Shown here in pieces: positions 2,096 through 20,000 of a DNA stretch of 64,000 bases. Under the pieces are notes generated by a model. It searched no databases. It was given only the letters and a program-made list of their open reading frames with translations, and was not told the origin of the DNA. The position numbers and the translations under genes were made by a program. The number at the start of each line of letters is the position of its first letter. Position 1 is the first letter of the stretch. The stretch is taken from the NCBI GenBank assembly GCA_964621615.1, contig CAZUMW010000001.1, forward strand, positions 28,464 to 92,463, in the 5' to 3' direction. This DNA is from an uncultured Thermodesulfobacteriota bacterium (GTDB lineage: Bacteria; Desulfobacterota; WTBG01; CAIYCZ01; CAIRTM01).

Positions 2096-5000
2096 ATGTT
2101 TGTGGCAATTGTGTCAAGAAAAAGAGGCAAACGGATTCTTAAAACCCTGTCCGTGCTTGTCTGCTTGAGCTGTTTTATGCAGTTCAGCGGGCTGGTTAAT
2201 CTTGCCGCAGCCGCAAAAATCGACCGCAACACCCTTAATCTGAAAAAACAACTTCCCGAACCGCCAACGCTGAAACCGCCGAAACGCTCCCCGCTGGGCG
2301 AAAAAATAATGCGGTGTACTGTGATGCTGATGCCTGCGGCGGTAAAAGAATACGTGTACAAGATCGAGTCCATCGAACAGCAGCTCGACCTGCTGGAGCA
2401 GAAGCTTGAAAGCGGTGAAGACATCAATATCGATTACCGCATTGTGCTTGCCAAACTCGCCGGTTTGAAATCGCTAAGAAAAGAAGTGCAGCGTAATTTC
2501 CGTATCAGAAGCCGGCGCCTTAAAGAGCGTCTTGCAAAAAAAGAGATGCCGGTTGTGCGGAATGCTCTTGATGCGCTTCAAAAACAGCGCCGGGAATTCC
2601 GTGAAGCAGCAGCGCCGGTTTTCGAAACACTTGAAGCATTCGGGATCGCCGATGCGGTTGACCGGGTAAAGATAAACCGGCTGCGACGGCTTGTAAAGCG
2701 TCTGAAGGTTTTTAAACGGCGGCTTCCCCGCAGCCACGACAATCCCCTTCCCTGGCGAAGCGTTGAGCGAAATCAGGTCAAGCCCGAAACTGAAAGTTCT
2801 GTTACTCCCGCCTATATGCGATCTTCTAAAAACAGGTATGCAGCGCGGATTACAAGAAAACCGGCTGGTTCAAAAAGCCTTTCTGCTGCGGCGACCGGCG
2901 CGCCGATGCCCGATGACCTTTCAGAAACACCGGATGTTGTCATAACCCGGCAGATGCGAGATATTGTTGAGCGGCTCGGACACTCCCCGGCCCGAATCTA
3001 TGAGTGGGTTAAAAACAATATCCAATCCGAATTCTACCACGGCTCTTTGCGCGGCTCCGCGGGCACCCTTGCCAAACGCGCCGGTAACGATACCGATACC
3101 TGCTCGCTGCTGATAGCGCTTCTTCGGGCAGCCGGTGTGCCGTGCCGCTACGTGCAGGGCACGGTGGAGATACCGATGCAGCGCGCAAAAGCACTTACCG
3201 GTATCGAGCATGAGCCCCATGTGGGCCGGTATTTTGCCAACGCAGGCATTCCCGTCTGGAACACCGGCACCGGCAGGATACGCTTTGAGCACACCTGGGT
3301 TGAAGCCTGGGTTGACTATATGCCCTACGGCGGTGCAAAAGCCGGGACCGGTGACACCTGGGTGCCGCTTTCCCCCTGGTACAAAGACTATGAAAACACC
3401 CCCGGCACCGACCTTGCCGGCCTGACAGGATTTGACCGTGAAATGTTTATCAACGATTATATGCAGACCGTGCGTACCGATGACCCGGCTGATGCATACA
3501 AAATGTATTTTGACAATTGGTTCAGAGAAAACGGGCCGGGCCGGAACTGGCAGGAAGGGCTGGGCAGCCGCAGCCTGAAGCCCGAGCACTTCAGAAAGCT
3601 GCCGGCGACGGTCAATTTCGAGGTCATTTCCTTTCTGGGTGAACATGCAGCCCTGCCGCAGGATCAGCGCCACACGGTGACTATTGAAGTGCCGGAAGCG
3701 GGCATTGCATACACTATGAATATCATGGATTGTATCGGCAAAAAAATTTCTTTTGCCTATCTTCCTGCAGACAACGAAACCCGGGATCTGATTAATGAAA
3801 GGGGCGGTATTGACCATATACACCCCTTAAGTGTCAATCTGCTGCCCACGCTTCTTGTTGACGGGAAGCGGACGGCAGCGGGTAAAACGGTTAACGCAGG
3901 TTTTGAGCACGCGATGCGCGTTACGTTTTATGTGCCCGGTTTCGGAAGCGATGCGGTTATCTATGAAATGGTTTCGGGCGTCTATTATGTTCTCGGGATC
4001 GATCCGCAGCATGTAACAAACAAACTGCTTTCCGACAGGCTTTCTGGCAGGTGTGCTCAGGCTGAAGAACCCGTTTCTGCTTATGAGAATATGGATGAAA
4101 CGCCTGGTGATGCATTATATGTTTCCGTCATGAAGTATTTTCGCGACCGGAATACGGCCGATTACGACATTGCCGCCCTGTCAAAGGTCCGGGTTCTGAA
4201 GGAAACAACCTGTGCATTAATCGGCCGGGACCCACAGGTGATTGTGGACCGGTTCGGCCTGCCGGTCTCACTTGATAGGGGGCTCCTGTTTATTGATTCT
4301 CAGCGCGATTTTGTAACCCCGGTTTCGGTTGCCGGTGACAGCACGGCTGAAAAAGATTTTTTGTATATACGCGGGTATAACGCTTCATATAATGAGCATG
4401 ACATGTTTGAAGATTATGTGGGTATTGAGGCGGTTTCAACGGTTAAGCTGCTTCAGATTGCACGGCAGCACAATATGCCGGTGTATACTATCGATGCAGC
4501 TAACAGCGACAGTATCATCCCGCTTCTGGGACATGATGAAGCGGTGAAGCAGGTGATCCGGAATGCCGTACACAGAGGCCGCATTGTTACGGTACACAAA
4601 GATCCGGTGACGGTTAAGCAGTGGCGGGGAGTCGGGTATATAGAACGTGACCCGGTAACCCATGCCGCCGGGTATTACGGCATCGGCAGGAAAGGGTTTG
4701 CTTCAGCGGTTTTAACCGATATACAAAGCGAGGTGATCTGGCAGACAGGCAAAGTCGGAACGACCTGCGGCAACCCGGTCAGCATGGCAAGCGGCAATAA
4801 ACTGCAAAAGGAAACCGACCTTGTGCTGCCTGCTGCGGGAAAGGATGTTGATATAACGAGATACTACAACTCACGTGGAGACTGGGTCGGGCTGTTCGGG
4901 CACGGCTGGACCTTCACCTGTGATGAGCAGTTGCATGAGCGCTCTGCTGACGGCCAGGTTGTGTACCGGACAGCAGACGGCAGGCTGTATACCTATACCC

Positions 5001-8000
5001 CCGATGCAGACGGCACCTATACGGCTGAGCCGGGAAATTATGCGGTGCTGACAAAAACTGACGAAGGGTTTGTTATCCGCAAAAAGGGCGGCACACGGCA
5101 TCTGTTTAACCCGGCCGGGAAACTGATGCAGATCGTCGACCGGAACGGCAACTCACTGAGTTTCAGCTACAGCGGTGATGCCCTGACCGGCATTACCGAT
5201 GCTGCCGGGCGCAGGATAGACGTTGAGTGCCGGGATGGTAAAATAACACGGATCACTACTCCTGATGACGATAACACGTGGACCTACACCTATAACGGTG
5301 ATGATCTTGTCAAAGCCGTCAATAATGCAGGACAGACTGTATCCTATACATACCGGGACCATAACATGACCTCCCGAACCGGGCCCGGGGGCAAAACGGT
5401 TGTATATGAATATTACAGCAGCGGGAAAGTGCACTGCGAGCTTTTGCCCAACGGTGCCGAAATGGTGTTCAGCTACAACAGCCCGCTCAGGATAGCAACC
5501 ATGCGCGGCGGATGCTGCTCGGTCTCGCATCATTATTACAACCGGTACGGGCTGAATACGGGGCATATGGACGCTCTGGGCTATGAAGAGCTTGTTGAGT
5601 ATGATGACCAATTAAATGTGGTAAAAGTGATCGACAAAAAAGGCGGTGTGGTGAAAAACACCTATGATGAAAACGGCAACCTGCTGACAAAAACAGATCA
5701 GCTGAATCATACGACCGCCTACACCCATGAGCCGGTATATAACCAGGTCCTGACCGTGACCGACGGGGAAGGAAATACCACCACAAACACCTATGATGAC
5801 CGGGGGAATCTGCTTGCCACGGTCGATCCGGAAGGGGTGCGCATTGAACATGCATATTATGAAAACGGTCTGATTAAGACGACCGGCAGAAACGGTATTA
5901 TAAAAGCAGGCTTTACCTATTATGCGGATGGCACCCTTGCAACCGTAACGGATGGGGATAATAATACCGCGCGCTTTACCTATAACGCGCTGGGCAGGCT
6001 CACCGGAAAAACCGATGCAAACGGCAACACAACGGCATACGAGCTTGATAAGGCAGGCAATATTATCACGACGACCGATGCGGAAGGAAACCGGACCGTT
6101 TTTACCTACAACGAACAGAACCTTCGCACCAGCATGACCGATGGGCGCGGAAACACCACCACTTATGAATACAATGCGTATGGCAAACTCATAACAGTGA
6201 CCGATCCCATGGGTTTTGAGAAGAGCTATACCTATACGCCCATGTATGAGCTTGCATCCGAAACGGATAAAAACGGAAACACTACTTTCTATGTATATGA
6301 TGAGCTGCGCCGGGTTGTTGAAAAGCAGTATGCGGACGGCTCCGTTGAAACCTTCACCTACGATCCTGAAGGCAGGCTGATCAGCGCCGCGAACAGTCAG
6401 GGTACCACGGTGCAGGAATATGATGCTGCCGGGCGGCTGGTGAAAACGATCGATACCTTTGGCCAGGAAATTTCCTATACCTATTATGCCGACGGCAGCC
6501 GGAAGTCCATGACAGATCCGCAGGGCGGCGTGACACAATATGACTATTATGCAAACGGACAGATCAAATCGATTACCGGTCCCTCGGGAAAGACAACCGC
6601 CTATGCGTATACGGACGGGCTGCTTGAAAAGATCAGTAATCCAAACGGCACAGAAACCGTTTACGGCTATGATACTGCAGACCGGGTACACAGCCTTATC
6701 ACCCGCAAACAAAACGGCGAGGTGATTTCAGACATCCGGTATGAGTATGACGGTGTCGGCAATCGCCTGAGCATGACCGATACCGAAGGGGTTCACACCT
6801 ATGAATACGACATGCTCGATCAGGTCGTACGGGTCGACTATCCGGACGGTACGTTTACTGAGTATACCTATGATCCGGCATATAACCGGGCGACAATGAC
6901 AACCCCTGATGCAGCCGTTCTGTATGTGTATGACGATAACAACCGCCTGATAGAGGCCGGTGATGTAACCTTCAGCTATGATGCAAACGGCAACCAGATC
7001 AGCAGGCTGGAGGACGGGGAGGTGACCGCCTACCGGTTTGATGCAAAGAATCAGCTCGCAGGAATCTCCTTCAGCAGCGGAACTGAAAATACATTTGCCT
7101 ATAATGCCTTCGGGCAGAGGATCACCCGGAAGGACGGCTCCGCTATCATGCATTATCTGTATGACGGCAGGCAGGTGCTCATGCAGACAAACGGACAGGG
7201 CGTAATAAGCAGCGCATTTGTGAACGGATCCGGGTTAATCGGACCGCTTTATAAAAAGAACGCAAGGGATGAATACACCTGGTATGTCAGGGATGCCCTG
7301 GGCACTGCAACCCATCTGACCGATGAGGCAGGTGACATTGCTGCCTCATACCGGTATGATATATTCGGCGCGGTGCGAAGCTCAACGGTTATTGATGACC
7401 GGGGAATCAGGAATCAATATACGGGAAAAGAGCTTGACGATGAATCGGGCCTCATGTATTTCGGAGCGAGATATTATAACCCGGAGATCGGCCGGTTTGT
7501 TTCTGCTGATACCTACACCTGGGGGCCGGATGATGAGAGGGGGATGAACAGTCGCGGACAGGATCACATTTTGACATATGTTGGTGCTACTCAAACATCG
7601 CAATTAAACCTTTATGTTTATACAGCCAACAATCCTGTCAAACAGATTGATCCAGACGGACATCTAGCGGGCCTTGCTGCAATAGTTGCGTTGATTATGC
7701 TCAGTTTAGTAGCTTCTTCATTGATGGTAATTGCTAGAACTTTTACGGGTACTATAGGAAATAATGCAGCGGAAGTTTTAAGCGGAATGGTTGCTGATTT
7801 CATGACAGCGTACGGTTTGCTTGGTGCGCTTCCTGGGATAGCAACTGCTACTTTGACTTCTTTGTTGGTAAATTTTGTTACTACCCTATGGACAGAGCTT
7901 TATCTTAACCGCACAATTAGAGCAGTAAACAAATTTTACAGTGCTATTGACAGTTTGTTAGCATATTATGAATCTCCGCGTGTACAATGTCCAATTTTTC

Positions 8001-8005
8001 ATTAG
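2096..8005 (+). CDS. Rhs/YD-repeat polymorphic toxin (1969 aa) with N-terminal signal-like segment and a transglutaminase-like cysteine-protease domain; C-terminal hydrophobic toxin tip
   Basis: AGGA-like RBS before ATG. The transglutaminase-like Cys-His core is CSLLIALLRAAGVPCRYVQG ... EHTWVEAWVD (nt ~3080-3330). Dozens of YD repeats (YTYDxxGNL, nt ~4900-7200). Rhs core motif RYYNPEIGRFVSADTY (nt 7471-7518), then DPDGHLAGL (nt ~7648). The last ~110 aa are hydrophobic and Gly/Ala-rich. GC drops sharply from ~7560 to the stop. Confidence 0.85.
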   Translation: MFVAIVSRKRGKRILKTLSVLVCLSCFMQFSGLVNLAAAAKIDRNTLNLKKQLPEPPTLKPPKRSPLGEKIMRCTVMLMPAAVKEYVYKIESIEQQLDLLEQKLESGEDINIDYRIVLAKLAGLKSLRKEVQRNFRIRSRRLKERLAKKEMPVVRNALDALQKQRREFREAAAPVFETLEAFGIADAVDRVKINRLRRLVKRLKVFKRRLPRSHDNPLPWRSVERNQVKPETESSVTPAYMRSSKNRYAARITRKPAGSKSLSAAATGAPMPDDLSETPDVVITRQMRDIVERLGHSPARIYEWVKNNIQSEFYHGSLRGSAGTLAKRAGNDTDTCSLLIALLRAAGVPCRYVQGTVEIPMQRAKALTGIEHEPHVGRYFANAGIPVWNTGTGRIRFEHTWVEAWVDYMPYGGAKAGTGDTWVPLSPWYKDYENTPGTDLAGLTGFDREMFINDYMQTVRTDDPADAYKMYFDNWFRENGPGRNWQEGLGSRSLKPEHFRKLPATVNFEVISFLGEHAALPQDQRHTVTIEVPEAGIAYTMNIMDCIGKKISFAYLPADNETRDLINERGGIDHIHPLSVNLLPTLLVDGKRTAAGKTVNAGFEHAMRVTFYVPGFGSDAVIYEMVSGVYYVLGIDPQHVTNKLLSDRLSGRCAQAEEPVSAYENMDETPGDALYVSVMKYFRDRNTADYDIAALSKVRVLKETTCALIGRDPQVIVDRFGLPVSLDRGLLFIDSQRDFVTPVSVAGDSTAEKDFLYIRGYNASYNEHDMFEDYVGIEAVSTVKLLQIARQHNMPVYTIDAANSDSIIPLLGHDEAVKQVIRNAVHRGRIVTVHKDPVTVKQWRGVGYIERDPVTHAAGYYGIGRKGFASAVLTDIQSEVIWQTGKVGTTCGNPVSMASGNKLQKETDLVLPAAGKDVDITRYYNSRGDWVGLFGHGWTFTCDEQLHERSADGQVVYRTADGRLYTYTPDADGTYTAEPGNYAVLTKTDEGFVIRKKGGTRHLFNPAGKLMQIVDRNGNSLSFSYSGDALTGITDAAGRRIDVECRDGKITRITTPDDDNTWTYTYNGDDLVKAVNNAGQTVSYTYRDHNMTSRTGPGGKTVVYEYYSSGKVHCELLPNGAEMVFSYNSPLRIATMRGGCCSVSHHYYNRYGLNTGHMDALGYEELVEYDDQLNVVKVIDKKGGVVKNTYDENGNLLTKTDQLNHTTAYTHEPVYNQVLTVTDGEGNTTTNTYDDRGNLLATVDPEGVRIEHAYYENGLIKTTGRNGIIKAGFTYYADGTLATVTDGDNNTARFTYNALGRLTGKTDANGNTTAYELDKAGNIITTTDAEGNRTVFTYNEQNLRTSMTDGRGNTTTYEYNAYGKLITVTDPMGFEKSYTYTPMYELASETDKNGNTTFYVYDELRRVVEKQYADGSVETFTYDPEGRLISAANSQGTTVQEYDAAGRLVKTIDTFGQEISYTYYADGSRKSMTDPQGGVTQYDYYANGQIKSITGPSGKTTAYAYTDGLLEKISNPNGTETVYGYDTADRVHSLITRKQNGEVISDIRYEYDGVGNRLSMTDTEGVHTYEYDMLDQVVRVDYPDGTFTEYTYDPAYNRATMTTPDAAVLYVYDDNNRLIEAGDVTFSYDANGNQISRLEDGEVTAYRFDAKNQLAGISFSSGTENTFAYNAFGQRITRKDGSAIMHYLYDGRQVLMQTNGQGVISSAFVNGSGLIGPLYKKNARDEYTWYVRDALGTATHLTDEAGDIAASYRYDIFGAVRSSTVIDDRGIRNQYTGKELDDESGLMYFGARYYNPEIGRFVSADTYTWGPDDERGMNSRGQDHILTYVGATQTSQLNLYVYTANNPVKQIDPDGHLAGLAAIVALIMLSLVASSLMVIARTFTGTIGNNAAEVLSGMVADFMTAYGLLGALPGIATATLTSLLVNFVTTLWTELYLNRTIRAVNKFYSAIDSLLAYYESPRVQCPIFH

Positions 8006-8203
8006 ATCAAAAGTTTTTTTAGAGTCGTGTCAAAAAAATTCAACAACTTTCATCCCGGGCGAATAAAGTGAGATTTGGAATTTATGTTCTGTTAGATTTT
8101 CCATGGATTCCGCATTAATAGAGGGGTGAAAGAATAGATAGTTTTTTGATGCTATGCCGACAAGTGTAAATCAATATCGTACATCATTTAGGGAGTTTTG
8201 AAA

Positions 8204-8578
8204 ATGCCGTTACTGGACATATTGTTAGCCATTTTTGGTTTTGGTTTAATGGTTTTATGTATGCTGTTCCCAGAAAAAGTTAAATCATTTTATTCCACTA
8301 ATAATGAGAAAGAAATAAAACCGCAATTAAAAAAAATTACAATAGGTTTATTTGTTCTTATTATCGATTTCGGAATATGGTCTATATGTTCTTTGGTAGT
8401 TGGAATAAATATTACTGATGAAGGAAAAATATTATTTAATTTTATAACAATAATTATTGTTCCTTTAATATCTTTCATCTTTATTTTCTTTGGGCTTATT
8501 GATTTGATTAAACACTTATTATCAACAAAAAAAACGAAGCAAAAGGAAGCAAGGAATAAACCAGGGGTTACATCTTAA
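8204..8578 (+). CDS. small multi-pass membrane protein, candidate Rhs immunity protein
   Basis: Immediately downstream of the Rhs toxin tip. AGGGAG RBS 8 nt before ATG 8204. 124 aa with about 4 predicted TM helices. Very AT-rich like the toxin tip. No recognisable family. Confidence 0.5.
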   Translation: MPLLDILLAIFGFGLMVLCMLFPEKVKSFYSTNNEKEIKPQLKKITIGLFVLIIDFGIWSICSLVVGINITDEGKILFNFITIIIVPLISFIFIFFGLIDLIKHLLSTKKTKQKEARNKPGVTS

Positions 8579-9660
8579 ATAATAACTATTGCATACAAAA
8601 AGAAGCGACAATAATGTCTCAAAGACACACGATTCAATCAGATTGTATTGTGGGGAGAGATCAATGACACGTGCATTGCGTGTTGAGTATGAAGGGGCGT
8701 TCTATCATATTCTTAATCGAGGCAACGGGGGAGAGAAAGTACTCAAACAAAAGCGGGACAAGGAAAGATTTCTTCAGTATGCAGGAGAAGCCGCTGAACG
8801 ATACAGCTTTGTCATTCACACCTATTGCCTGATGGATAACCATTTTCATGTGGTTGTAGAGACCCGTGAAGCAAATCTGAGTACAGCAATGCAGTGGCTC
8901 AATGTGAGCTATGCGACATGGTATAACAAAAAGCACAGCCGAAGCGGTCATGTATTTCAGGGAAGATTCAAATCATATTTGATAGATGCGGATGAATATT
9001 TGGCAGCGGTATCCCGTTACATACATCTCAATCCGGTTCGGGCGGGGATGGCAGAAAATCCTGCGGTTTATCAATGGAGCAGTTACGGGTGTTTTGTGGA
9101 ACAACGGGAAAAGCCCGGATGTCTGGAGACCCGGAAAGTGCTTTCATATTTCAGCCCAAAGACTTCTGAGGCAATAAAGGAATATAAGAGGTTTGTTGAA
9201 AATATAGAGATAAACGCGCTTGAAAATCCCAGCAAACAAGCTGTTGAGGGATTTATAATCGGGGGAGCTGGTTTTGCAGACCGGGTGCGGCAACAAATGG
9301 TTACAGCAAATCACGAACAGGAAAAAGAGATTCCCCAGCTTAAAAGGCTTAAGCCCAAACCGGCACTTGAAAGCATAATAGAAGCAGCGTCTTATGTGTT
9401 TTGCTGCAGGAGAGAAGATATTGTAAGAAGCGGAAAGAAACATAACCTGGCACGTGATATAGCGATATATATTGCACGAACGTCAACCGGTTTGTCATGC
9501 AGAGAACTCGGGGAGCATTTTGGCGGAATAACGGGTGCCGGGATTACTATGAAGTACAGGCAGATAAAAAATCTGGCGGAAAAGGAAAAAGGTATCAGGG
9601 AAAACATAGCGAATATCAGCAGCCGTATATTTAATATTTAAGATGTGACCCTTGACTATG
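8563..9660 (+). mobile_element. IS200/IS605-like (Y1 HuH transposase + DnaA_C-like HTH) element delimited by 16-bp inverted repeats GGGTTACATCTTAAAT / ATTTAAGATGTGACCC
   Basis: The left repeat at 8563-8578 overlaps the stop of the immunity ORF. The right inverted copy is at ~9639-9656 (15/16 match). Single transposase ORF inside. Low GC. Confidence 0.5.
8664..9641 (+). CDS. IS200-like Y1 (HuH) transposase / RAYT-type protein fused to DnaA C-terminal-like HTH domain
   Basis: HuH motif DNHFHVVVE and Tyr motif RYIHLNPV (Y1 transposase fold). The C-terminal ARDIAIYIARTSTGLSCRELGEHFG resembles the DnaA_C HTH. GGGGAGAGA RBS upstream of ATG 8664. Confidence 0.7.
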   Translation: MTRALRVEYEGAFYHILNRGNGGEKVLKQKRDKERFLQYAGEAAERYSFVIHTYCLMDNHFHVVVETREANLSTAMQWLNVSYATWYNKKHSRSGHVFQGRFKSYLIDADEYLAAVSRYIHLNPVRAGMAENPAVYQWSSYGCFVEQREKPGCLETRKVLSYFSPKTSEAIKEYKRFVENIEINALENPSKQAVEGFIIGGAGFADRVRQQMVTANHEQEKEIPQLKRLKPKPALESIIEAASYVFCCRREDIVRSGKKHNLARDIAIYIARTSTGLSCRELGEHFGGITGAGITMKYRQIKNLAEKEKGIRENIANISSRIFNI

Positions 9661-9801
9661 CTCAAAAAATATTTTTTGGCAAATTTCATTGTGTTTGCTG
9701 TTTTTGTTGTTACCCTGGGTGCAGCAGTTGTACTGATTATTATAGGTCTATTTGATTTGATTCGCCATTGGTTTAAGAAAAGGAAAAGGGTCACATCTTA
9801 A
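9658..9801 (+). CDS. 47-aa hydrophobic mini-ORF, orphan immunity-like fragment (C-terminus homologous to 8204..8578 product)
   Basis: Translation MLKKYFLANFIVFAVFVVTLGAAVVLIIIGLFDLIRHWFKKRKRVTS. The C-terminus (GLFDLIRHW...VTS*) parallels GLIDLIKHLL...GVTS* of the upstream protein. The nucleotide 3' end, including GGGTCACATCTTAAAT, is duplicated. No clear RBS. Below the ORF-track length cutoff. Confidence 0.35.
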   Translation: MLKKYFLANFIVFAVFVVTLGAAVVLIIIGLFDLIRHWFKKRKRVTS

Positions 9802-9886
9802 ATATTAAATATTTCACACAAAGAGAAGCACAAATGATGTCTCATAGGAACACGATTCAGGCAGATTGTATTTTGGGGAACGGTTA

Positions 9887-10131
9887 ATGACACGTGCGTT
9901 GCGGGTTGAATATGAAGGAGTGTTCTATCATATTCTTAATCGAGGCAACGGGGAGAAAAAGCACTCAAACAAAAGCGGGACAAGGAAATATTTCTTCAGT
10001 ATGCAGGAGATGCTGCTGACCGTTACAGCCTTAACATTCATACCTATTGCCTGATGGACAACCATTTTCATCTGGTCATAGAAACCCGAGCAGCAAACCT
10101 GAGTGCGGCAATGCAGTGGCTGAATGTGAGC
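9887..10131 (+). pseudogene. truncated, frameshifted duplicate of the IS200-like transposase 5' end
   Basis: nt 9788-10131 are ~85-90% identical to 8563-8945, including leader and MTRALRVEYEG..YHILNRGNG. A 1-nt deletion (GGGGAGAGAAAG to GGGGAGAAAAAG) shifts the frame. Homology ends abruptly at ~10131. Confidence 0.6.
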
Positions 10132-10162
10132 TGTTTAATTGAAGTTGAGTAGGTTATGAATT

Positions 10163-12190
10163 GTGAAAGTTGAGTTCATGAATAGAAACCAGGCAGAAAA
10201 TGCTTTGTATCGTATTTTTGGTCACAGAGAATTTTACGATGAGCAGTGGCAGACTATCGAAAGGCTCTTTCGCGGTGAGCGTTTGTTGATGATTGAGCGA
10301 ACCGGTTACGGGAAATCCCTTTGTTATCAATTCCCGGCAACGCAGTTTAAGTATACCACCGTTGTTTTTTCGCCGCTTATTGCATTAATGCGTGACCAGA
10401 TTGACTATCTGCAATCAAAAGATATTGCCGCAGAATGCATAAACAGCGAACAGACTCCTGAAGAAAACACCCGGATTATTGCCGAGGCAAAGCAGGGGAA
10501 GATAAAGATTCTCTATATTGCGCCTGAACGCCAGGAGAATCAGGAATGGATTGAAGCTGTTCAAAGCGGACAGATAAAAATATCAATGGCAGTTATTGAT
10601 GAAGCCCACTGTGTCTCTATGTGGGGACATGATTTTCGTCCCGCTTTTCGTCGGATCATAAGTCTTATAAAAATGCTTCCCCGCAATTTTCCTGTACTTG
10701 CCACAACCGCTACCGCAACAGATCGTGTTGCTCAAGACATTATAAAACAGATGGAAGGTCATGTTAGGCTGGTGCGCGGTGATCTCATGCGAAAGAATTT
10801 TCGTTTATCGGTTGTGACTTTTGATTCAGAAGATGCAAAATTTGCCTGGGTGGCTGAATTTCTACAAAAGCAATCTGCGGATGCAACGGGAATTATTTAT
10901 ACCGGCACCAGGGTCAATACGGAACTTTATTCCCGGTGGCTTGGGGCAAACGGTTTTTCCGTGGCAAGTTATAATGCCGGTCTTGATCCGGAATCACGTA
11001 AAGCCATAGAAGAAGGATTGCTCTTAAACAAATATAACTGTATTGTTTCTACAAATGCACTGGGCATGGGGATTGACAAATCAAATATTCGTTTTATCGT
11101 ACACACGCAGCTGCCGGCATCACTGATACATTATTATCAGGAAATCGGCCGGGCAGGCCGTGATGGACTGCCTGCACAAATAGCCTTATTATATAATCAG
11201 AAAGATAGAGAACTTCCTCGATCATTTATCGAAAAAAACCGACCTGACATTAAGCTGTACACAAGAGCTGTAGACGCATTACGCCGGGAGCCTCTGGGTG
11301 AATATGATTTAATGCGCAGAACAAACCTTACCCAGACCCAGATAAGAGTCATCAGAAGCGATCTCATTGATCAGGGTATAATAAATGAGGCTGCTTACGG
11401 GGGTAAAAAGAAATATGAATTGAAACACAATGCCCCGGCTTTAGATACCGAACCCTTCAAAAGACTCCGCGGTTTCAAAGAACAGGAGCTTCAAAAAATG
11501 ATCGACTATGCAGAAGCTGAAAAGGGCGGTATGAATATTTTGTGTGAGTATCTTGGTGATAATCCGGGTGCGGCAACTGACGGCTGTGAACGTTATACTT
11601 ATGCATTAAGTGAATCCTGGAGGAAAGCTATAGCTGCATTTCGAGACGATTATTTTCCGGAGTTGCCGGTCGAGACGAAAAACAGCATTCTTATTAATGG
11701 TGTTGCCGCTTCATATTATGGTGTTTCTAATGTTGGATCGGTAATACATCGTTGTAAATATGAAAATGGTGGTGATTACCCCGGGCATTTAATAAAGCAG
11801 ACGCTAAGGGCCTATAGGGCTCGACTGAGCCAAACCGCATTTGATTTAGTTCTATATGTGCCGCCGGCGGTATCCGGTGATTTGGTTAAGAATTTTTCTG
11901 TTGCTGTAGCTAAGTCATTGGGGCTGCATTTGTCACATGGTCTTGTTAAATTAAGAGAGACTAAACAGCAGAAAATTTTTCAAAACGGCGTTTTGAAACG
12001 TGATAATGTAAAAGATGCCTTTGATTATGCCGGTCCGGAAGATATTGAGGGGAAAAGTATTTTATTAATTGATGATATTTTTGACAGCGGAGCAACAATA
12101 AAAGAGATAGGACGAATGTTAAAGAAAAAAGGAACTGCAAAAGCCGCTCCGTTGGCAATTGCCAGGACGGTTGGGGGTGATTTGTCGTGA
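10163..12190 (+). CDS. RecQ-family DNA helicase fused to a C-terminal ComF/ComFC-type phosphoribosyltransferase (PRTase) domain
   Basis: Walker A TGYGKS. DEAH box VIDEAHCVSMWGHDFRPAF. RecQ motif YYQEIGRAGRDG. No RQC/HRDC. The last ~190 aa carry the ComF signature (LRETKQQKIFQNGVLKRDNVKDAF; PRPP-binding SILLIDDIFDSGATIKE...LAIAR). GTG at 10163 or ATG at 10178. Low GC. Confidence 0.8.
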   Translation: MKVEFMNRNQAENALYRIFGHREFYDEQWQTIERLFRGERLLMIERTGYGKSLCYQFPATQFKYTTVVFSPLIALMRDQIDYLQSKDIAAECINSEQTPEENTRIIAEAKQGKIKILYIAPERQENQEWIEAVQSGQIKISMAVIDEAHCVSMWGHDFRPAFRRIISLIKMLPRNFPVLATTATATDRVAQDIIKQMEGHVRLVRGDLMRKNFRLSVVTFDSEDAKFAWVAEFLQKQSADATGIIYTGTRVNTELYSRWLGANGFSVASYNAGLDPESRKAIEEGLLLNKYNCIVSTNALGMGIDKSNIRFIVHTQLPASLIHYYQEIGRAGRDGLPAQIALLYNQKDRELPRSFIEKNRPDIKLYTRAVDALRREPLGEYDLMRRTNLTQTQIRVIRSDLIDQGIINEAAYGGKKKYELKHNAPALDTEPFKRLRGFKEQELQKMIDYAEAEKGGMNILCEYLGDNPGAATDGCERYTYALSESWRKAIAAFRDDYFPELPVETKNSILINGVAASYYGVSNVGSVIHRCKYENGGDYPGHLIKQTLRAYRARLSQTAFDLVLYVPPAVSGDLVKNFSVAVAKSLGLHLSHGLVKLRETKQQKIFQNGVLKRDNVKDAFDYAGPEDIEGKSILLIDDIFDSGATIKEIGRMLKKKGTAKAAPLAIARTVGGDLS

Positions 12191-13362
12191 TTAATACGCA
12201 CGAGTACTCATATTGGATTGCATTGAGTCATTTACCGAAATGGCGTATCGAGCGTATCAATATGCTTATTGTTGAGATCCTTCATAATAAAAATATGCAG
12301 CTCGCAGAGTTTTTTGAGCTGAGTCCGCCATCCCGGGAAAAAGAGTTTCATTTGGATCATAAGGAAAGTGCAGATATACAAAAGGCCGGGGAATATTTGT
12401 CCAATTACTCTTTCCTTGCTGAACAATTGCTTGTACAAGGCTTTGATATAATTCCTATCAGCTCCCCTGACTATTCTCCAGTGCTGAAAAACAATCTTAA
12501 ACTCAAATATTCTCCGCCCCTGCTTTATGTCAAGGGGAACAGGCGGCTGCTTTACGAGCCATCAGCCGCAATAGTCGGCTGTCGAAAAGCATCTGACATT
12601 TCTTTGCACTTTACCCGTACGATTGCTGAGAAATGTGCCCATGAAGAAAAAGTAGTGGTGAGCGGATTTGCCAAAGGTATTGACCGGCAGGCGCTTGATT
12701 CGGTCCTTGCATATCATGGCAAAAGTATTATTGTTCTGCCGCAGGGGATTATGACATTTGGCAGTGGTATAAAAAAATATTATAAGCAGCTTGTTGACGG
12801 AGATGTGCTGGTTTTAAGCACTTTTTATCCGAAAGCCCCATGGAGCGTAGGCCTTGCTATGGCGCGAAATGTATATATTTACGGTTTAGCCGAAGAAATA
12901 TTTGTGGCCGAATCGGATAATAAAGGGGGCACGTGGTCCGGTGTTCTCGATGGGTTAAAAAAGGGGCGGACAATATTTGTTCGCAAGGCGGACATACAGG
13001 AAAAGAATACAAACAATATTTTGATAGAAAAGGGAGCCCGGGGAGTAGACTTGCAGGGAAATATAATTTCTTTAGAAAAAGAAGGTATGCACCAGCATAT
13101 CATTGCAGACAATGTTGCCGCCTACGGTCTGCAAGCAGAGAATAGTGATTCATTTGAAAGTAAAGTTATACAGTATTTAAATAAGACGAAAGAGCCAAGA
13201 ACCTCCAGGCAGATTAAGGAAGCCATTAACGTAGAGGAACCTGCACAAAAGATAACGCAGAAATTAAAAAAAATAACCGGTATCAATTATACCAAACATA
13301 AAAACAAAATCTTTTTTTTCACTGAACGAACAAATCCATTAAAACAGCAGGAGCTGTTCTGA
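12187..13362 (+). CDS. dprA: DprA/Smf-family DNA-processing protein (SLOG/Rossmann fold) with C-terminal winged-helix-like extension
   Basis: The GTG start overlaps the upstream TGA (GTGA), indicating translational coupling. DprA core PLLYVKGNRRLL...AIVGCRKAS...VVVSGFAKGIDRQA...IIVLPQGI...VYIYGLAEEIFVAESDNKGGTWSG. Low GC. Confidence 0.75.
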   Translation: MINTHEYSYWIALSHLPKWRIERINMLIVEILHNKNMQLAEFFELSPPSREKEFHLDHKESADIQKAGEYLSNYSFLAEQLLVQGFDIIPISSPDYSPVLKNNLKLKYSPPLLYVKGNRRLLYEPSAAIVGCRKASDISLHFTRTIAEKCAHEEKVVVSGFAKGIDRQALDSVLAYHGKSIIVLPQGIMTFGSGIKKYYKQLVDGDVLVLSTFYPKAPWSVGLAMARNVYIYGLAEEIFVAESDNKGGTWSGVLDGLKKGRTIFVRKADIQEKNTNNILIEKGARGVDLQGNIISLEKEGMHQHIIADNVAAYGLQAENSDSFESKVIQYLNKTKEPRTSRQIKEAINVEEPAQKITQKLKKITGINYTKHKNKIFFFTERTNPLKQQELF

Positions 13363-13414
13363 TAGTGATATTTGGCAGCACGCGGGCGGTGGCACATCTT
13401 AAATAAAAAAATTT

Positions 13415-13681
13415 ATGGATGCACTTATTCGTTTTGCAACGTCTGTTTTGTATGTTTTGGCCGGCTGGGGGACAAAGCAATTTTTCAGTGGGAATATAGA
13501 TAAGTATAAAATTCTATATATAGCAGTGCCGATATTATTGGCAATATATTTTTTGGCTATAGAAAAAATGTATGAGATACAAAAGCAAAACAGAAAGATA
13601 ATTGCCAAATCCAGGAATGCCGTGATTCAATTTTTGGCATTAGCAACAATATTTTATTTTTTTGGTCTAATATTTGTGTAA
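13415..13681 (+). CDS. small hypothetical membrane protein (88 aa, 3 TM-like segments)
   Basis: AT-rich ORF at the island edge. No family recognised. Weak RBS. Confidence 0.3.
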   Translation: MDALIRFATSVLYVLAGWGTKQFFSGNIDKYKILYIAVPILLAIYFLAIEKMYEIQKQNRKIIAKSRNAVIQFLALATIFYFFGLIFV

Positions 13682-13684
13682 ATA

Positions 13685-13786
13685 AGCCCGGCAGACGTGG
13701 CGGCCAATTACTTTCTGCAGGGCGGGGATCGGTATTTATTCACCTGAGGACAGCATCCTTTGTGTGCATGAATACGGCTTTTTTTA
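13685..13786 (+). repeat. copy 2 of ~105-nt intergenic repeat family with 3' hairpin + T-run
   Basis: First ~70 nt identical to copy 3 and ~90% to copy 1. Ends GCATGAATACGGCTTTTTTT. Confidence 0.65.
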
Positions 13787-13884
13787 TGAGATGAGCACAG
13801 GGGGGCAAAAAACCGTTATTTAACCTGTGTGTCCTTGTGGTTTTATAAAATGGACGGCGGTTACATGAGTCCCCGGAGCAGTAT

Positions 13885-15057
13885 ATGGATTATGGAAACG
13901 AATTTATAGCAAAAGCAAAGCGCCTTATTTTAGTCACTATTTGTACTGTGCTTGCAGGGATCGGTCTGGTTCTGTACGGGTCCTGGTTCGGCAACCAGCT
14001 GCTGGGCATCCGCGCGCTTTGTACAGACACTGCCGGCAATGTTTATATCATAGCAAATTATACGCTCTATAAGCTGAACCGGTCGGGTGAAATACTGCTG
14101 CAATTCGGCGGAAAGGGCAGCGGGCCGGGCCGGTTTGGACAGGGGATCCCGCTTGATATGTGGGTTGATGAAAAGGGCACTATGTATGTTGCAGACATTC
14201 TTAACTATCGCATTCAAAAATTTGGTTCAAACGGTTTGTTTATCGCCCAATTCGGAAAGGCGGGAACAGAGCCGGGCGCCCTTGGAGATGCTTTTGAGCT
14301 GGCGACGGACAGTGAGGGCTGTCTCTACACGGCTGAGAGCACAAACAACCGAATCCAGAAATTCAGCCCCAGCGGAGAGCTGCTGTGGCATATAGGGAGC
14401 AGTCAGTCCCGTGATTTTAACGCCCCGCATGACCCTTTTGTTGGGCCGGACGGCACTGTGTATATCTGCGACTTTCGAAAGCAGCGAATCCAGAGCTTTT
14501 CCGGCGACGGCGCCTTCATTGCAGAGTATCCCACACGCCCGCCTTCAGATAACAGCACGCTCGGCAGCCAGAAAGATAAAATCAGCGCGTTTTTGTATAT
14601 GCTGCGCTTTCCGCAGCGCATAACCCGGGACAGCAGCGGCAATTTTTATGTGCTCAATTATAATTCAGGCCTGAGTATAGGTGCAATAAACAAATATGAT
14701 TCCGGCTTTAATCTGATCGATATTTTCGATTTATCCGATAAGGGAATACCGTTTATCACGTATCCGGCTGAAATAGCCTGCACCGCCGATGACACCATAC
14801 TGCTTATTATGCATGGCAGCATGAGCATAGAGCAGATAGCAGCAGACGGCACCAGTCTCGGTTCTTTCGGCACCGAGCAGCTTATAGCCGAACTTGATCT
14901 GCTTGGCAAACGAAAGGACCGTTTTCAGCAATTACAGCTGGCAGGAAAGCTGCTGGCGCTCATCGGGCTTGTCATGTCGCTTTTTATTTACCGGCGGTAT
15001 AAAAAAGTGCGTGATAAGGATCGAATCGCCGGCTCTCTGGTTACAAGAATCGATTAG
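13885..15057 (+). CDS. NHL-repeat (six-bladed beta-propeller) protein with N- and C-terminal TM anchors
   Basis: Repeated NYRIQKF / NNRIQKF / KQRIQSF NHL motifs. Hydrophobic N-terminal and C-terminal segments. Confidence 0.7.
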   Translation: MDYGNEFIAKAKRLILVTICTVLAGIGLVLYGSWFGNQLLGIRALCTDTAGNVYIIANYTLYKLNRSGEILLQFGGKGSGPGRFGQGIPLDMWVDEKGTMYVADILNYRIQKFGSNGLFIAQFGKAGTEPGALGDAFELATDSEGCLYTAESTNNRIQKFSPSGELLWHIGSSQSRDFNAPHDPFVGPDGTVYICDFRKQRIQSFSGDGAFIAEYPTRPPSDNSTLGSQKDKISAFLYMLRFPQRITRDSSGNFYVLNYNSGLSIGAINKYDSGFNLIDIFDLSDKGIPFITYPAEIACTADDTILLIMHGSMSIEQIAADGTSLGSFGTEQLIAELDLLGKRKDRFQQLQLAGKLLALIGLVMSLFIYRRYKKVRDKDRIAGSLVTRID

Positions 15058-17069: not shown

Positions 17070-20000
17070 ATGAAGCAGTTAATAAAGACGTGGTACGGTG
17101 TTTGGGGAGCGGTTATTATCTCTACAGTTCTGTTCACGGTGCAGGCACAGGCTCATGAGGCTGCCGTAGAAAGCGGGCTTCAGTGGCTTATAGACAGTCA
17201 GCATCCGGATAACGGCAGCTGGGGCACACTGCCGGAGCTTGATACCCCGGTTGTGCTCTCAGCCTTTCAAAAGCTCGGCGAAACGGGATATGCCTATGAC
17301 GAGGGCCTTTCCTTTCTGGAACAGACGCGGCCGGAGTGCATTGATTTTTTAAGCCGCAAAACGATCGCTTTGAGCGCTGCCGGGCGTGATGTTTCAGAAA
17401 GCCTTGAAAAAATTCTGGCGGCCCAGAATGAAGACGGCGGGTTTGGGTTTGCCCTGGGGTATTGCAGCTCTGTTATCGATTCCCTGATCGCAGCCCGCGC
17501 GCTGTCTGCTGCCGGAGTTGAGCAGCATGAAGTTATCGGCAGACTGGTATATTACATTACCGAATCGCAGAGCCAGGACAACGGCAGCTTTTCCTATGCC
17601 GCAGGCGGCCCGGAAAGCCTTGCAGTGACCTGCTGTGCAGCAATCGTGCTGAGTGACTTTTCACCCCGGTATGATGTTTCAGAACACCTGCGCAGTGCCC
17701 TTCATTTTATTTCAGGCTGTAAAAACCCTGACGGCGGGTACGGTGAGTCCGGAAGCACGGTGATCGAAACCGCGCTTGCGGTTCGGGCTCTGACTGCGGC
17801 AGGCGGCAGTGCACAGGACATTCTTTCCGGGCGGCGGTATCTGACTGCAATGCAGAATCAAAGCAGCGGAGCCTGGAATGATGCGGTTTATGAGACAGCA
17901 CTTGCCCTGCGGGCGCTTAATAATACCGATACAGTTGACCGGGCAAACCTGCAGGTACACCCCGAGGGAATCACCATGGAACCGCAGTACCCGGCCCAGG
18001 GGCAGACGGTGACCGTAACCGGTGAGGTGCGAAACACCGGCTCATCAGCTGCAGAGAATGTAGGGGTTTCTTTCTATCTCGGCGATCCGGAAAACGGCGG
18101 GGTTCATATAGACAGTGCTACCGTTTCAACCATTCTTGCCGGCGACAGCGAAGAGGTTCAGATTACGTTCACCCTTACCGGGGTAGTCGGCGAGCGGGAT
18201 ATGTATGTTGTCGCCGATCCGGATAACAGTATTCCCGAGATAAGCGAACATGATAATACAGCATCAAAAGGGTTTGTTAGCGGTACCATGCCTGATATTG
18301 CGGTGGTTGAGATTACACGGGATGTCGACACCCCTGCGGAAAACGAGCCGTTTACCATAAGCGCCGGGGTGCTCAACCTTGGTGAAAGCGATGCCGGGCC
18401 GGTTACGGTGTTTCTTTATGACGGCGATCCCGGGCAGGAGGATCCGCTGCTTAAGATCAGGCTTGACAACGTGTGCGGCGGCTGCAGCGGACAGGCTGAT
18501 TTTACGCTGCAGCTTTCAGCGGGTACACACACTCTGTATATTACCGCCTATCCGGATGATCCGAACGTAGAGGAGCAATCGCTTTCAAATAACCGGAGAT
18601 CATATACCGCTAATATTGATGGAGCCGTAATCCAGGGTATCGATCTTGCCGTCAGCCCGGCTGACATAGATTTTTCACCGCCCTATCCGCGCGACAACGA
18701 AACCGTAACCATTACCGCAACAGTGCGAAATAGCGGCAGTGAAACGGTAACCGATGCTTCTGTGGAACTGTTCCGTGCAGGTTCAGACGGAACCGGTGTA
18801 CTTATCGGGGAGCCATTTAGGGGCGTTACCGTCCCCGGAGCCGGTGCTGCCGACATTGTTATGCATGATGTGTCATTTGAAGCTGGACTTTTTGATATAT
18901 ATGTGAAGACTGACCCAGACAATACCTATGAGGAACACAGCGAGAATAACAATATAGCCGCAAAACAGCTGAGAGTATTAAGCTCAGCGGATGAGCTTGA
19001 TCTTTCAGTTGGCGAAATGTCATTTGACACTGCAACGCCGTTAGCAGGCGATCCGGTCCGGGTGAGCTGCCGGATAACCAATAACAGCACGGTTCCGCTT
19101 GAAGGGGTGAGCTTCGGCATATACGCAGGAGATCCCCGCTCGGGCGGTGCGCTTCTGATCCCCGAAGTACAGACGGTTTCAGCGCTCGGGATCCAAAGCA
19201 GTATATATATCGAAGGGACCATCGATACGGCCGGACGCGGCGGAGAGCAGCACATCTATATTATGGCGGATGTTGATAATGATATAGCCGAGCGCAACGA
19301 AGAAAACAATCTCGCATCCGCAGCGCTTGTGGTAACCGGTGAATCTGCTCCCGATCTAATCGCAACGGATGCAGATATTATAGTGGAGCCTGCAGACCCG
19401 GCTGTCGGTGACAACATGACCGTCACCTGCCGGATTACAAACGCAGGTTCTGTCGCCGTTTCAGATGATTTTCAGGTCAATGTTTACGACGGCCCGCCAT
19501 CGGAAGACAACCCGCCATTTGCCGGGCTGCCGGTAACCGGCGGTATGCCGGCAAACGGATACTATCTTGACATAACCCTGCCGATTCCTGCAGCACAGCT
19601 TGCCGGAACGCATACCATATATGTGGTGGCAGATGACGGCAATGCCGTCAGTGAGTTTAATGAATATAACAACACCGCAACAAAAGAGGTTACTGTTCAG
19701 GCAGCTGACCTGAGCATTGGTTCTGAGGATATCTCTTTCAGCCTGCCGGCCCCCATGGAAAACGAACTGTTTACCCTTACCGCTGTTGTGCACAATATCG
19801 GAATGCTCAATGTGGAGAGCATGCGGATCGCTGTATATACCGGCGACAACGACACAGCAAATCTCATCGGCGAACAACAGGCAGGGCCGATCGGTGCAGG
19901 AGAAAGCGTGAGTGTTGAAGTGGAAAATCTCGCATTTGATGCTGCCGGCTCCTATAATCTGCAGGTGAAACTCGACCCCGACAACCTGATTGCTGAGGCA

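Follow-up and report, generated by a model that had tools for sequence, protein, structure and literature searches.

Characterised membrane-depolarising Rhs tips are few and are delivered by type VI secretion (T6SS), with Tse5 (PA2684) of Pseudomonas aeruginosa as the reference case. In Tse5, a YD shell encloses a hydrophobic 16-kDa tail and two plug aspartates carry out cleavage (PMC9637101, PMC10684867), which occurs between L1168 and I1169 in a protein whose plug follows the pattern DPXGX19DPXG (PMC10684867). The C-terminal part, Tse5-CT, inserts in membranes, forms cation-preferring pores and depolarises cells, with Tsi5, a membrane protein, protecting the producer (PMC9637101, PMC10684867). 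The ionophore toxins of contact-dependent growth inhibition (CDI), known as the CdiA-CT EC93 family, have immunity proteins (CdiI) that are likewise small, hydrophobic, polymorphic and located in the membrane (PMC11630599). Zhang et al. 2012 described an architecture of the Sec/type II secretion system (T2SS) class in which a signal peptide or transmembrane (TM) segment, an inactive transglutaminase and RHS repeats precede a variable toxin, and also listed Tox-WTIP, a pore-forming domain with two TM helices, on RHS carriers (PMC3482391). Here we examine an Rhs/YD-repeat polymorphic toxin gene (nt 2096-8005, forward strand, 1969 aa), its hydrophobic C-terminal tip and the small membrane protein gene downstream of it, all located in a 64,000-nucleotide stretch of DNA (hereafter the window) from an uncultured Thermodesulfobacteriota bacterium (contig CAZUMW010000001.1, positions 28,464 to 92,463).

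In enterobacterial Rhs loci, recombination joins a new tip and its immunity gene to the core and leaves remnants of the old module downstream, known as orphan rhs-CT/rhsI. The locus studied here resembles this arrangement in carrying a new cassette on a conserved core, with the remnant of a former module downstream. Between about nt 7545 and 8578 there is most likely a horizontally exchanged toxin/immunity cassette on a Sec-exported transglutaminase-like Rhs protein. Such a cassette would supply the last ~40 residues of the plug including its DPDG motif, the 113-aa tail, a spacer and a 124-aa protein with three TM helices. Unlike in the enterobacterial case, the junction is not at PxxxxDPxGL but about 35-40 residues upstream, in an insert of the plug, and all that is left of the former immunity gene is its 3′ end, which abuts a RAYT-like element.

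A preliminary description of the locus had reported an abrupt fall in GC near nt 7560 inside the Rhs open reading frame (ORF), about 30 codons before the DPDG motif, and computation bears this out. GC is not uniform along the gene: it amounts to 0.523 in the Rhs body (2096-7559), 0.392 in 7560-8005, 0.333 in the intergenic region (8006-8203) and 0.264 in the small ORF (8204-8578). GC at third codon positions (GC3) drops from 0.59 to 0.27, with a maximum-likelihood change point at codon 1826 (nt 7574) and a break that lies 26-35 codons before DPDG. The log-likelihood gain at this change point is 25.5, compared with 11.1 for the best of 5000 codon permutations, none of which reaches the observed value. 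First and second codon positions change little across the break, so amino-acid usage cannot explain the shift. As had been noted, GC stays low through the last ~110 residues, which correspond to a 113-aa tail, and through the downstream gene; the low-GC stretch does not end at nt 8578, as originally delimited: up to about nt 14000, over a transposase-like element and two paired defence genes, GC remains at 0.38-0.44. The two low-GC frames are truly coding, since frames this open are rare in shuffled sequence (0.055% of shuffles for the tail, 0/20000 for the small ORF). Read-through of the Rhs frame into AT-rich DNA that does not code for protein was rejected as an explanation of the tail, on the same figure for the tail and on conservation of the protein in the ortholog described below.

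A full-length ortholog of the Rhs protein, P0003 (1956 aa, 60% identity, 99% coverage with the whole protein as query), is encoded on contig L082. GC3 steps from 0.64 to 0.225 at the equivalent codon of that gene (its codon 1796), its tail has a GC of 0.335, and a 107-aa ORF with a GC of 0.29 follows 43 nt downstream. In both genomes, a low-GC block consisting of the plug end, the tail and a small three-TM protein joins an Rhs body of ~52-53% GC at the same residue. The cassette junction (nt 7544-7574) is delimited by three signals, namely the GC3 change point, the end of the blastn alignment of the two Rhs gene bodies (69% identity), which stops at window nt 7544, and a change point in protein identity at aa 1817-1820, where identity to P0003, 87% for aa 1700-1816, falls to 39% for the remainder starting at aa 1817. 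The junction sits directly after the invariant YTWGPDDERG, between the two plug Asp residues. Beyond it, the two tails are 45% identical over 98 aa (E 2e-23) and the two partners 33% identical over 91 aa (E 2e-13). Divergence increases from body to tail to partner, a gradient that is the one expected of toxin/immunity pairs, which would have diversified together. The Rhs bodies of the two loci have 65% nucleotide identity and a third-position identity of 43-44%, meaning that synonymous sites are saturated, yet both cassettes have a GC3 of 0.22-0.27, which suggests a fairly recent arrival of each in its present genome, out of a low-GC pool. Low-GC hosts of related Rhs proteins do exist, as one such protein (locus L002) comes from a Deltaproteobacteria metagenome-assembled genome (MAG) of 33% GC.

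The former module is represented by an orphan remnant of a second immunity gene of the L082 type, of which the last ~40 codons persist (nt 9654-9801, forward strand). Within it, a 110-nt piece (9661-9770) matches the 3′ end of the partner gene in L082 (L082:10086-10195) at 89% identity, and the encoded protein is 86% identical to the L082 partner over the last 36 residues. No window of the same length in the two Rhs bodies exceeds 82% nucleotide identity, so the common ancestor of the remnant and the L082 partner gene is more recent than that of the Rhs genes. Judging by this match, the remnant is a displaced fragment of an orphan immunity gene, evidence that this lineage formerly carried a cassette of the L082 type. 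Together with the linked pair of homologous tail and partner in L082, this remnant substantiates the proposed displacement signature of a C-terminal toxin and its immunity gene.

The remnant lies beyond the right repeat of a RAYT/IS200-like element (nt 8562-9654, forward strand). The gene of this element (8664-9641) encodes a Y1_Tnp domain (Pfam, E 8.8e-15) and a DnaA C-terminal helix-turn-helix (Bac_DnaA_C, E 1.4e-6), and scores 73 bits with NF047646 REP_Tyr_transpos, below the cut-off of 80. Inverted 28-nt repeats are found at 8562-8589 and 9627-9654, the left one supplying the stop codon of the partner gene. A truncated second copy (9786-10135, forward strand), made up of the repeat and the 5′ third of the gene, is revealed by direct repeats that are 85-88% identical (8565-8910 and 9788-10132), and the 17-mer GGGTCACATCTTAAATA occurs in 4 copies where 0.12 would be expected. 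The partner gene and the orphan remnant each have a RAYT-like repeat exactly at their 3′ end, and the element may mark or mediate the right boundary of the cassette.

Among related Rhs proteins the core is conserved and the C-terminal tip is variable, in keeping with membership of the Rhs polymorphic toxins. An insert of ~25 aa in the plug (...SAD[TS][YF]TWGPDD...) is common to the window, L082, the L002-type loci (L002/L083/L084) and L085. The tip of P0003 is homologous to that of the window, but far more diverged than the body and set behind a sharp junction, and the tails of L002 and L085 are unrelated to it. In L002-type proteins the C-terminus is a hydrophobic tail of 85 aa, and an overlapping multi-TM ORF of 271 aa comes next; the L085 protein ends in a 159-aa Gly/Ala/Ile-rich hydrophobic tail followed directly by a multi-TM ORF of ~110 aa. 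BLASTP and hhalign detected no significant similarity between tail types, which have only a short Gly motif in common (GLLGALPG, GLGGILAG and GLAGILAG). Homology among the different hydrophobic tail types is not claimed, as the tail alignment, compared by hhalign with the tails of L085 and L002, gave only a 14-column match on the Gly motif at 6.5% probability. About 27 complete tails were available in the wider transglutaminase-Rhs family; they measure 92-425 aa, are unrelated and are mostly hydrophilic. The tips are polymorphic and, in the subfamily with the insert, are variations on a membrane-active theme. The 271-aa partner of L002 (L002:2522-3337) ends with PPKTNLKKITIGF, which resembles KPQLKKITIGLF in the window (8318-8370) and PPQWKKIVLGLF in L082; this resemblance is not significant alone (E 0.24), and the partners of different tail types may be distantly related.

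The hydrophobic tip, a candidate membrane-inserting toxin, comprises the 113 residues after H1856 (nt 7664-8002) and a stop codon (feature 7664-8005, forward strand). With a grand average of hydropathy (GRAVY) of +0.91, it is the most hydrophobic of about 30 related Rhs tails. The preliminary description had called it strongly hydrophobic and Gly/Ala-rich, which holds for hydrophobicity and for Ala (14%) and does not hold for Gly (6%), Leu and Thr accounting for 16% and 10%, respectively. Single-sequence AlphaFold2 (AF2) modelling placed helices at residues 2-30, 32-54, 61-80 and 84-103, with low confidence (pLDDT 58.8). Helix 1 is a classic TM segment with a mean Eisenberg hydrophobicity of 0.78; hydrophobicity is moderate in helices 2 and 3, and helix 4, which is poorly conserved, has an amphipathic character (hydrophobic moment about 0.5). 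Invariant between the window and L082 tails are R25, the motif TGTxGxNxxEVxxGMxxDFxT, G51-x-x-G54-x-x-x-G58, N70, T73, T74 and E78. Conserved polar and Gly residues within hydrophobic helices would be easier to reconcile with an assembly that oligomerises or conducts ions than with a passive anchor. Solved Rhs cages hold cargo of ~15-16 kDa (PMC10684867), so the tail, at ~12 kDa, would fit such a cage.

We compared this tip with the known membrane-active toxins. Tse5-CT and Tsi5 are, by analogy, probably the closest functional counterparts of the tip and its partner. Like Tse5, the window protein is an Rhs protein with a hydrophobic tip (149 aa in Tse5, 113 aa here) that has predicted TM and amphipathic helices; unlike it, the tip has no detectable sequence similarity to Tse5. 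With the CDI ionophores it has in common a polymorphic tip, here predicted to be all-helical and membrane-spanning, whose sequence diverges while a short Gly motif is kept. It differs from them in being borne by an Rhs carrier instead of CdiA, with neither a VENN demarcation nor a separate entry domain, in having GxxGxxxG (G51, G54, G58) instead of the GxxxGxxxG glycine zipper, and in its four low-confidence AF2 helices as opposed to a five-helix bundle. Tox-WTIP differs as well, since the tail has neither RxxR nor Wx[ST]IP, its only Trp lies in TLWTELY, no Pfam match was obtained at E<=0.1, and four helices are predicted instead of two.

The partner gene (nt 8204-8578, forward strand) encodes a 124-aa protein that we consider a candidate immunity protein on the basis of its predicted TM helices and of its homology to the L082 partner. 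Its ATG at 8204 is preceded by GGGAG at a spacing of 8 nt. Hydropathy predicts three TM helices, one fewer than first described, and AF2 helices span residues 2-21, 39-67 and 72-117 (pLDDT 64.1). Lys-rich loops suggest that the N-terminus would be outside and the C-terminus cytoplasmic. Like Tsi5, the candidate immunity protein is small and integral to the membrane, and it would protect against the tip; it differs from Tsi5 in having three TM helices instead of two, and from CdiI proteins, which are two-helix hairpins of 72-100 aa. The spacer between the two genes (8006-8203) has a GC of 33%, and no homology, RNA family or promoter/terminator signal above background was detected in it. Rfam returned nothing relevant on 7000-14500, and promoter and terminator scans of 7500-10300 did not exceed shuffled expectation.

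Neither the tail nor the partner matches any Pfam, NCBIfam or PADLOC family, as the preliminary description had anticipated. A phmmer search of all PDB chains with the tail (E<=10) yielded nothing but gp41 (E 0.67) and, at E 2, a guanylate cyclase; Tse5 was not among the matches, although the presence of full Tse5-CT among those chains was not confirmed. A word-indexed search of 5.8 billion proteins gave no match for the tail and only the partner itself for the partner. HMMER with the tail against 1.84 billion cluster representatives produced a single match (E 3e-4) to a low-complexity repeat protein, which was judged spurious. Searches of these large protein collections with tail or partner as query missed P0003, a true homolog that was found only when the whole Rhs protein was used. 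A metagenome scan with the tail alignment, a search of viral contigs and a tblastn search of plasmids with tail and partner found nothing, and in a species representative set no relative was closer than a Deltaproteobacteria MAG (53% identity). By these comparisons, tail and partner appear to be a sequence family that is in no curated library and that sits on a bona fide Rhs polymorphic toxin locus.

The carrier itself has the RHS/YD repeats that make up the shell. RHS_repeat (PF05593, E 1.8e-73) matches 17 stretches of the 1969-aa protein, TIGR01643 matches with E 9.7e-61, and the best relatives in the PDB are Rhs cage structures, Tse5 among them. The start of the YD shell is marked by DUF6531 (aa 892-967, nt 4769-4996, forward strand; PF20148, E 3e-20). 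The N-terminus carries a probable Sec signal peptide or signal anchor (aa 1-39, ...LVNLAAA/AK, nt 2096-2212, forward strand), read by eye from its basic n-region, hydrophobic core and AxA site, a pattern kept in P0003 (..LVNIAYA/YK). It is followed by a transglutaminase-like domain (aa 299-427, nt 2990-3376, forward strand; Transglut_core, PF01841, E 5.8e-12), in which inspection by eye finds the Cys (..DTCSLL..) and His (..EHTWVEAW..) positions retained. The expected catalytic Asp appears to be replaced by Ser (..WVPLSPW.., aa ~424-427, nt 3365-3376), as judged by eye without a family alignment, which fits the inactive transglutaminase of Sec-type Rhs toxins. The window protein thus has the same N-terminal architecture as the class of Zhang et al. 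2012, the loss of Asp being assessed by inspection, and differs from T6SS-delivered Tse5, which has a PAAR-like N-terminus and VgrG4, in its Sec-type signal and transglutaminase-like domain. No T6SS protein family was found among the large ORFs annotated by Pfam in the 64-kb window. No entry for the exact 1969-aa product exists in the protein and gene-position collections, although the neighbouring small ORF is listed, on an NCBI contig of 361 kb and in Logan SRR7048228; genes nearby map solely to short Logan contigs of SRR7048225 and SRR7048228. In the source annotation, the Rhs gene may have been left uncalled or been flagged.

The aspartyl-protease motif in the plug of the carrier is atypical. 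The Rhs-associated core or aspartyl-protease plug (aa 1754-1856, nt 7355-7663, forward strand) scores 61.2 bits with TIGR03696 (Rhs_assc_core, cut-off 32.5), 103 aa being aligned to a 76-position profile and ending in ...NPVKQIDPDGH. It contains the subfamily-specific insert (YTWGPDDERG...) of ~25 aa. The second half of the aspartyl-protease and cleavage motif is DPDGH (aa 1852-1856, nt 7649-7663, forward strand), after which, by analogy with Tse5, cleavage is predicted to occur following H1856. Over aa 1805-1856 (nt 7508-7663), the first DPXG reads D1805-T-Y-T-W-G, and the second is D1852-P-D-G followed by H and not L. The two Asp positions are separated by 46 residues, compared with 18-19 in the motif DPXGX18-19DPXG (as defined in PMC10684867) and 19 in Tse5, giving DTYTWG-X46-DPDG; this spacing results from the subfamily insert, which is common to only four known loci. 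The second motif is DKSG in L002 and DLTG in L085. Both plug Asp positions (D1805 and D1852) are retained in all four subfamily members, which argues for release of the tail and not for tethering.

The explanation that we favour, and that we hold to be probably correct, is that the locus carries an exchanged toxin/immunity cassette with a Tse5-like membrane-inserting tail and a three-TM antidote. In such a system, the YD shell would enclose the hydrophobic tail and keep it soluble, and the plug aspartyl protease would cut after DPDGH. Upon contact with a target cell, the released tail would partition into the membrane, where the Gly-rich hinge (GLxGxLxG) and the polar residues R25, N34, E37, D45, N70 and E78 would give rise to an ion-conducting assembly that dissipates the membrane potential. 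The three-TM partner, residing in the inner membrane of the producer, would neutralise the cognate tail. What the comparisons establish is the junction, the foreign composition of the cassette, the joint conservation and divergence of tail and partner, the variety of tails in the subfamily and the orphan remnant; encapsulation, cleavage, membrane insertion, depolarisation, protection and any export route beyond Sec are inferred, as are the toxicity of the tail and its capacity to form pores.

Several observations weigh against this explanation. The combination of a Sec signal peptide with a C-terminal 24-residue TM-like helix means that, if the protein is exported unfolded through Sec, the producer's own membrane could retain the tail as a stop-transfer anchor. 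The non-canonical plug motif (DTYTWG-X46-DPDG) leaves cleavage not assured. The gap of 198 nt between the Rhs stop and the partner start is long for a toxin/immunity pair and contrasts with the shorter one in L082. The tail family consists of two members and one remnant, which makes conservation statistics thin, and the AF2 models of both tail and partner are of low confidence. In Pfam, NCBIfam and the PDB, the tail has no detectable homology to a characterised pore-former. All four members of the subfamily have hydrophobic tails, which a conserved structural role would predict equally well.

A first alternative is that the tail is a membrane-located toxin that forms no pore and that either inhibits an essential inner-membrane protein or lipid carrier, or serves mainly as an entry domain hijacking a membrane protein. 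CDI ionophore toxins need specific inner-membrane receptors and have separate entry domains (PMC11630599), and the conserved TGTxGxNxxEVxxGMxxDFxT could be a protein-protein interface instead of a pore lining. However, 113 residues folded into four helices leave no room for separate entry and effector domains, and Pfam, NCBIfam and the PDB reveal no enzymatic or known binding domain in the tail, such that we regard this alternative as unlikely.

The second alternative takes up the stop-transfer argument. The tail would be a C-terminal membrane anchor or insertion module that tethers the exported Rhs cage to the inner membrane of the producer or to a target membrane, and the multi-TM partner an assembly factor or partner subunit. 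The four members with the YTWGPDDERG insert keep the hydrophobicity of multi-TM-like tails though their sequences differ, and with a Sec-type N-terminus a C-terminal TM helix would act as a stop-transfer segment, a behaviour that was used experimentally by the authors of the Tse5 study (PMC9637101). Simple anchors, however, need no conserved intramembrane Arg, Asn, Glu, Asp and Gly, and these are kept at 45% identity between tails whose genes are saturated at synonymous sites. Both plug Asp and the DxxG site are retained, which predicts a severed tail; each tail type has its own co-varying partner; the orphan partner fragment downstream is a hallmark of immunity-gene displacement; and the foreign GC of the cassette favours exchange over a conserved structural part. 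Taken with these points, anchoring seems to us quite unlikely. That there was no exchange at all, and that low GC and divergence reflect relaxed or different constraint on a vertically inherited 3′ end next to an unrelated small ORF, is very improbable: the homologous tail and partner in the same position in the nearest ortholog would alone be compatible with vertical descent, but the GC3 step (0.59 to 0.27 within one codon) does not stem from amino-acid usage and coincides with the end of nucleotide homology, the identity of the orphan fragment to the L082 partner gene (89%) is higher than that between any parts of the two Rhs bodies, and other subfamily members have non-homologous tails.

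The neighbourhood of the locus contains further genes. At 10163-12190, one gene encodes a RecQ-like helicase with a fused phosphoribosyltransferase domain, and a DprA-like gene (12187-13362) overlaps with it; PADLOC identifies the two as PsyrT (E 1.9e-239) and PsyrA (E 2.1e-77), that is, as a PsyrTA defence or toxin-antitoxin pair. The Rhs cassette and this pair share one low-GC island, and the fourth copy of GGGTCACATCTTAAATA is found just after the PsyrA gene (13389-13405). Further downstream, nt 17070-26153 encode a 3027-aa surface protein with 7 CARDB domains, alpha-alpha toroid repeats resembling those of prenyltransferases and squalene cyclases, PKD domains and a C-terminal ice-binding-like adhesive domain.

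The conceptual framework for toxin/immunity exchange at Rhs loci already exists, so the gain offered by this locus is incremental. Some originality lies in the position of the junction inside the protease plug, in the persistence of low GC in two diverged cassettes, and in the use of a Sec-type carrier for hydrophobic cargo. It is conceivable, though in our view doubtful, that Rhs proteins with the YTWGPDDERG insert form a lineage of their own, exported by Sec independently of the T6SS and equipped solely with membrane-inserting tails. Such a lineage may be set apart by a cassette that includes part of the plug, by a low-GC gene pool and by RAYT-like elements at the 3′ boundary. If it exists, a hydrophobic pore-former would be delivered without an injection machine, a mechanism undescribed for Rhs toxins; anchoring of the tail first in the membrane of the producer, where the three-TM partner would hold it in check, would be equally undescribed for them.

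What the locus contributes is a sequence-orphan family of tip and immunity protein on an Rhs carrier of the Sec type; the bacteria are uncultured, probably similar to sulfate reducers, and come from hydrothermal sediments. Its junction stands out as unusually clean, and a displaced immunity remnant accompanies it. If the tail is not toxic, some Rhs cages would carry membrane anchors. If it is toxic, the cassette would provide a compact membrane-active module of 113 aa together with its specific antidote of 124 aa, and a test case for the export of strongly hydrophobic cargo without a T6SS.

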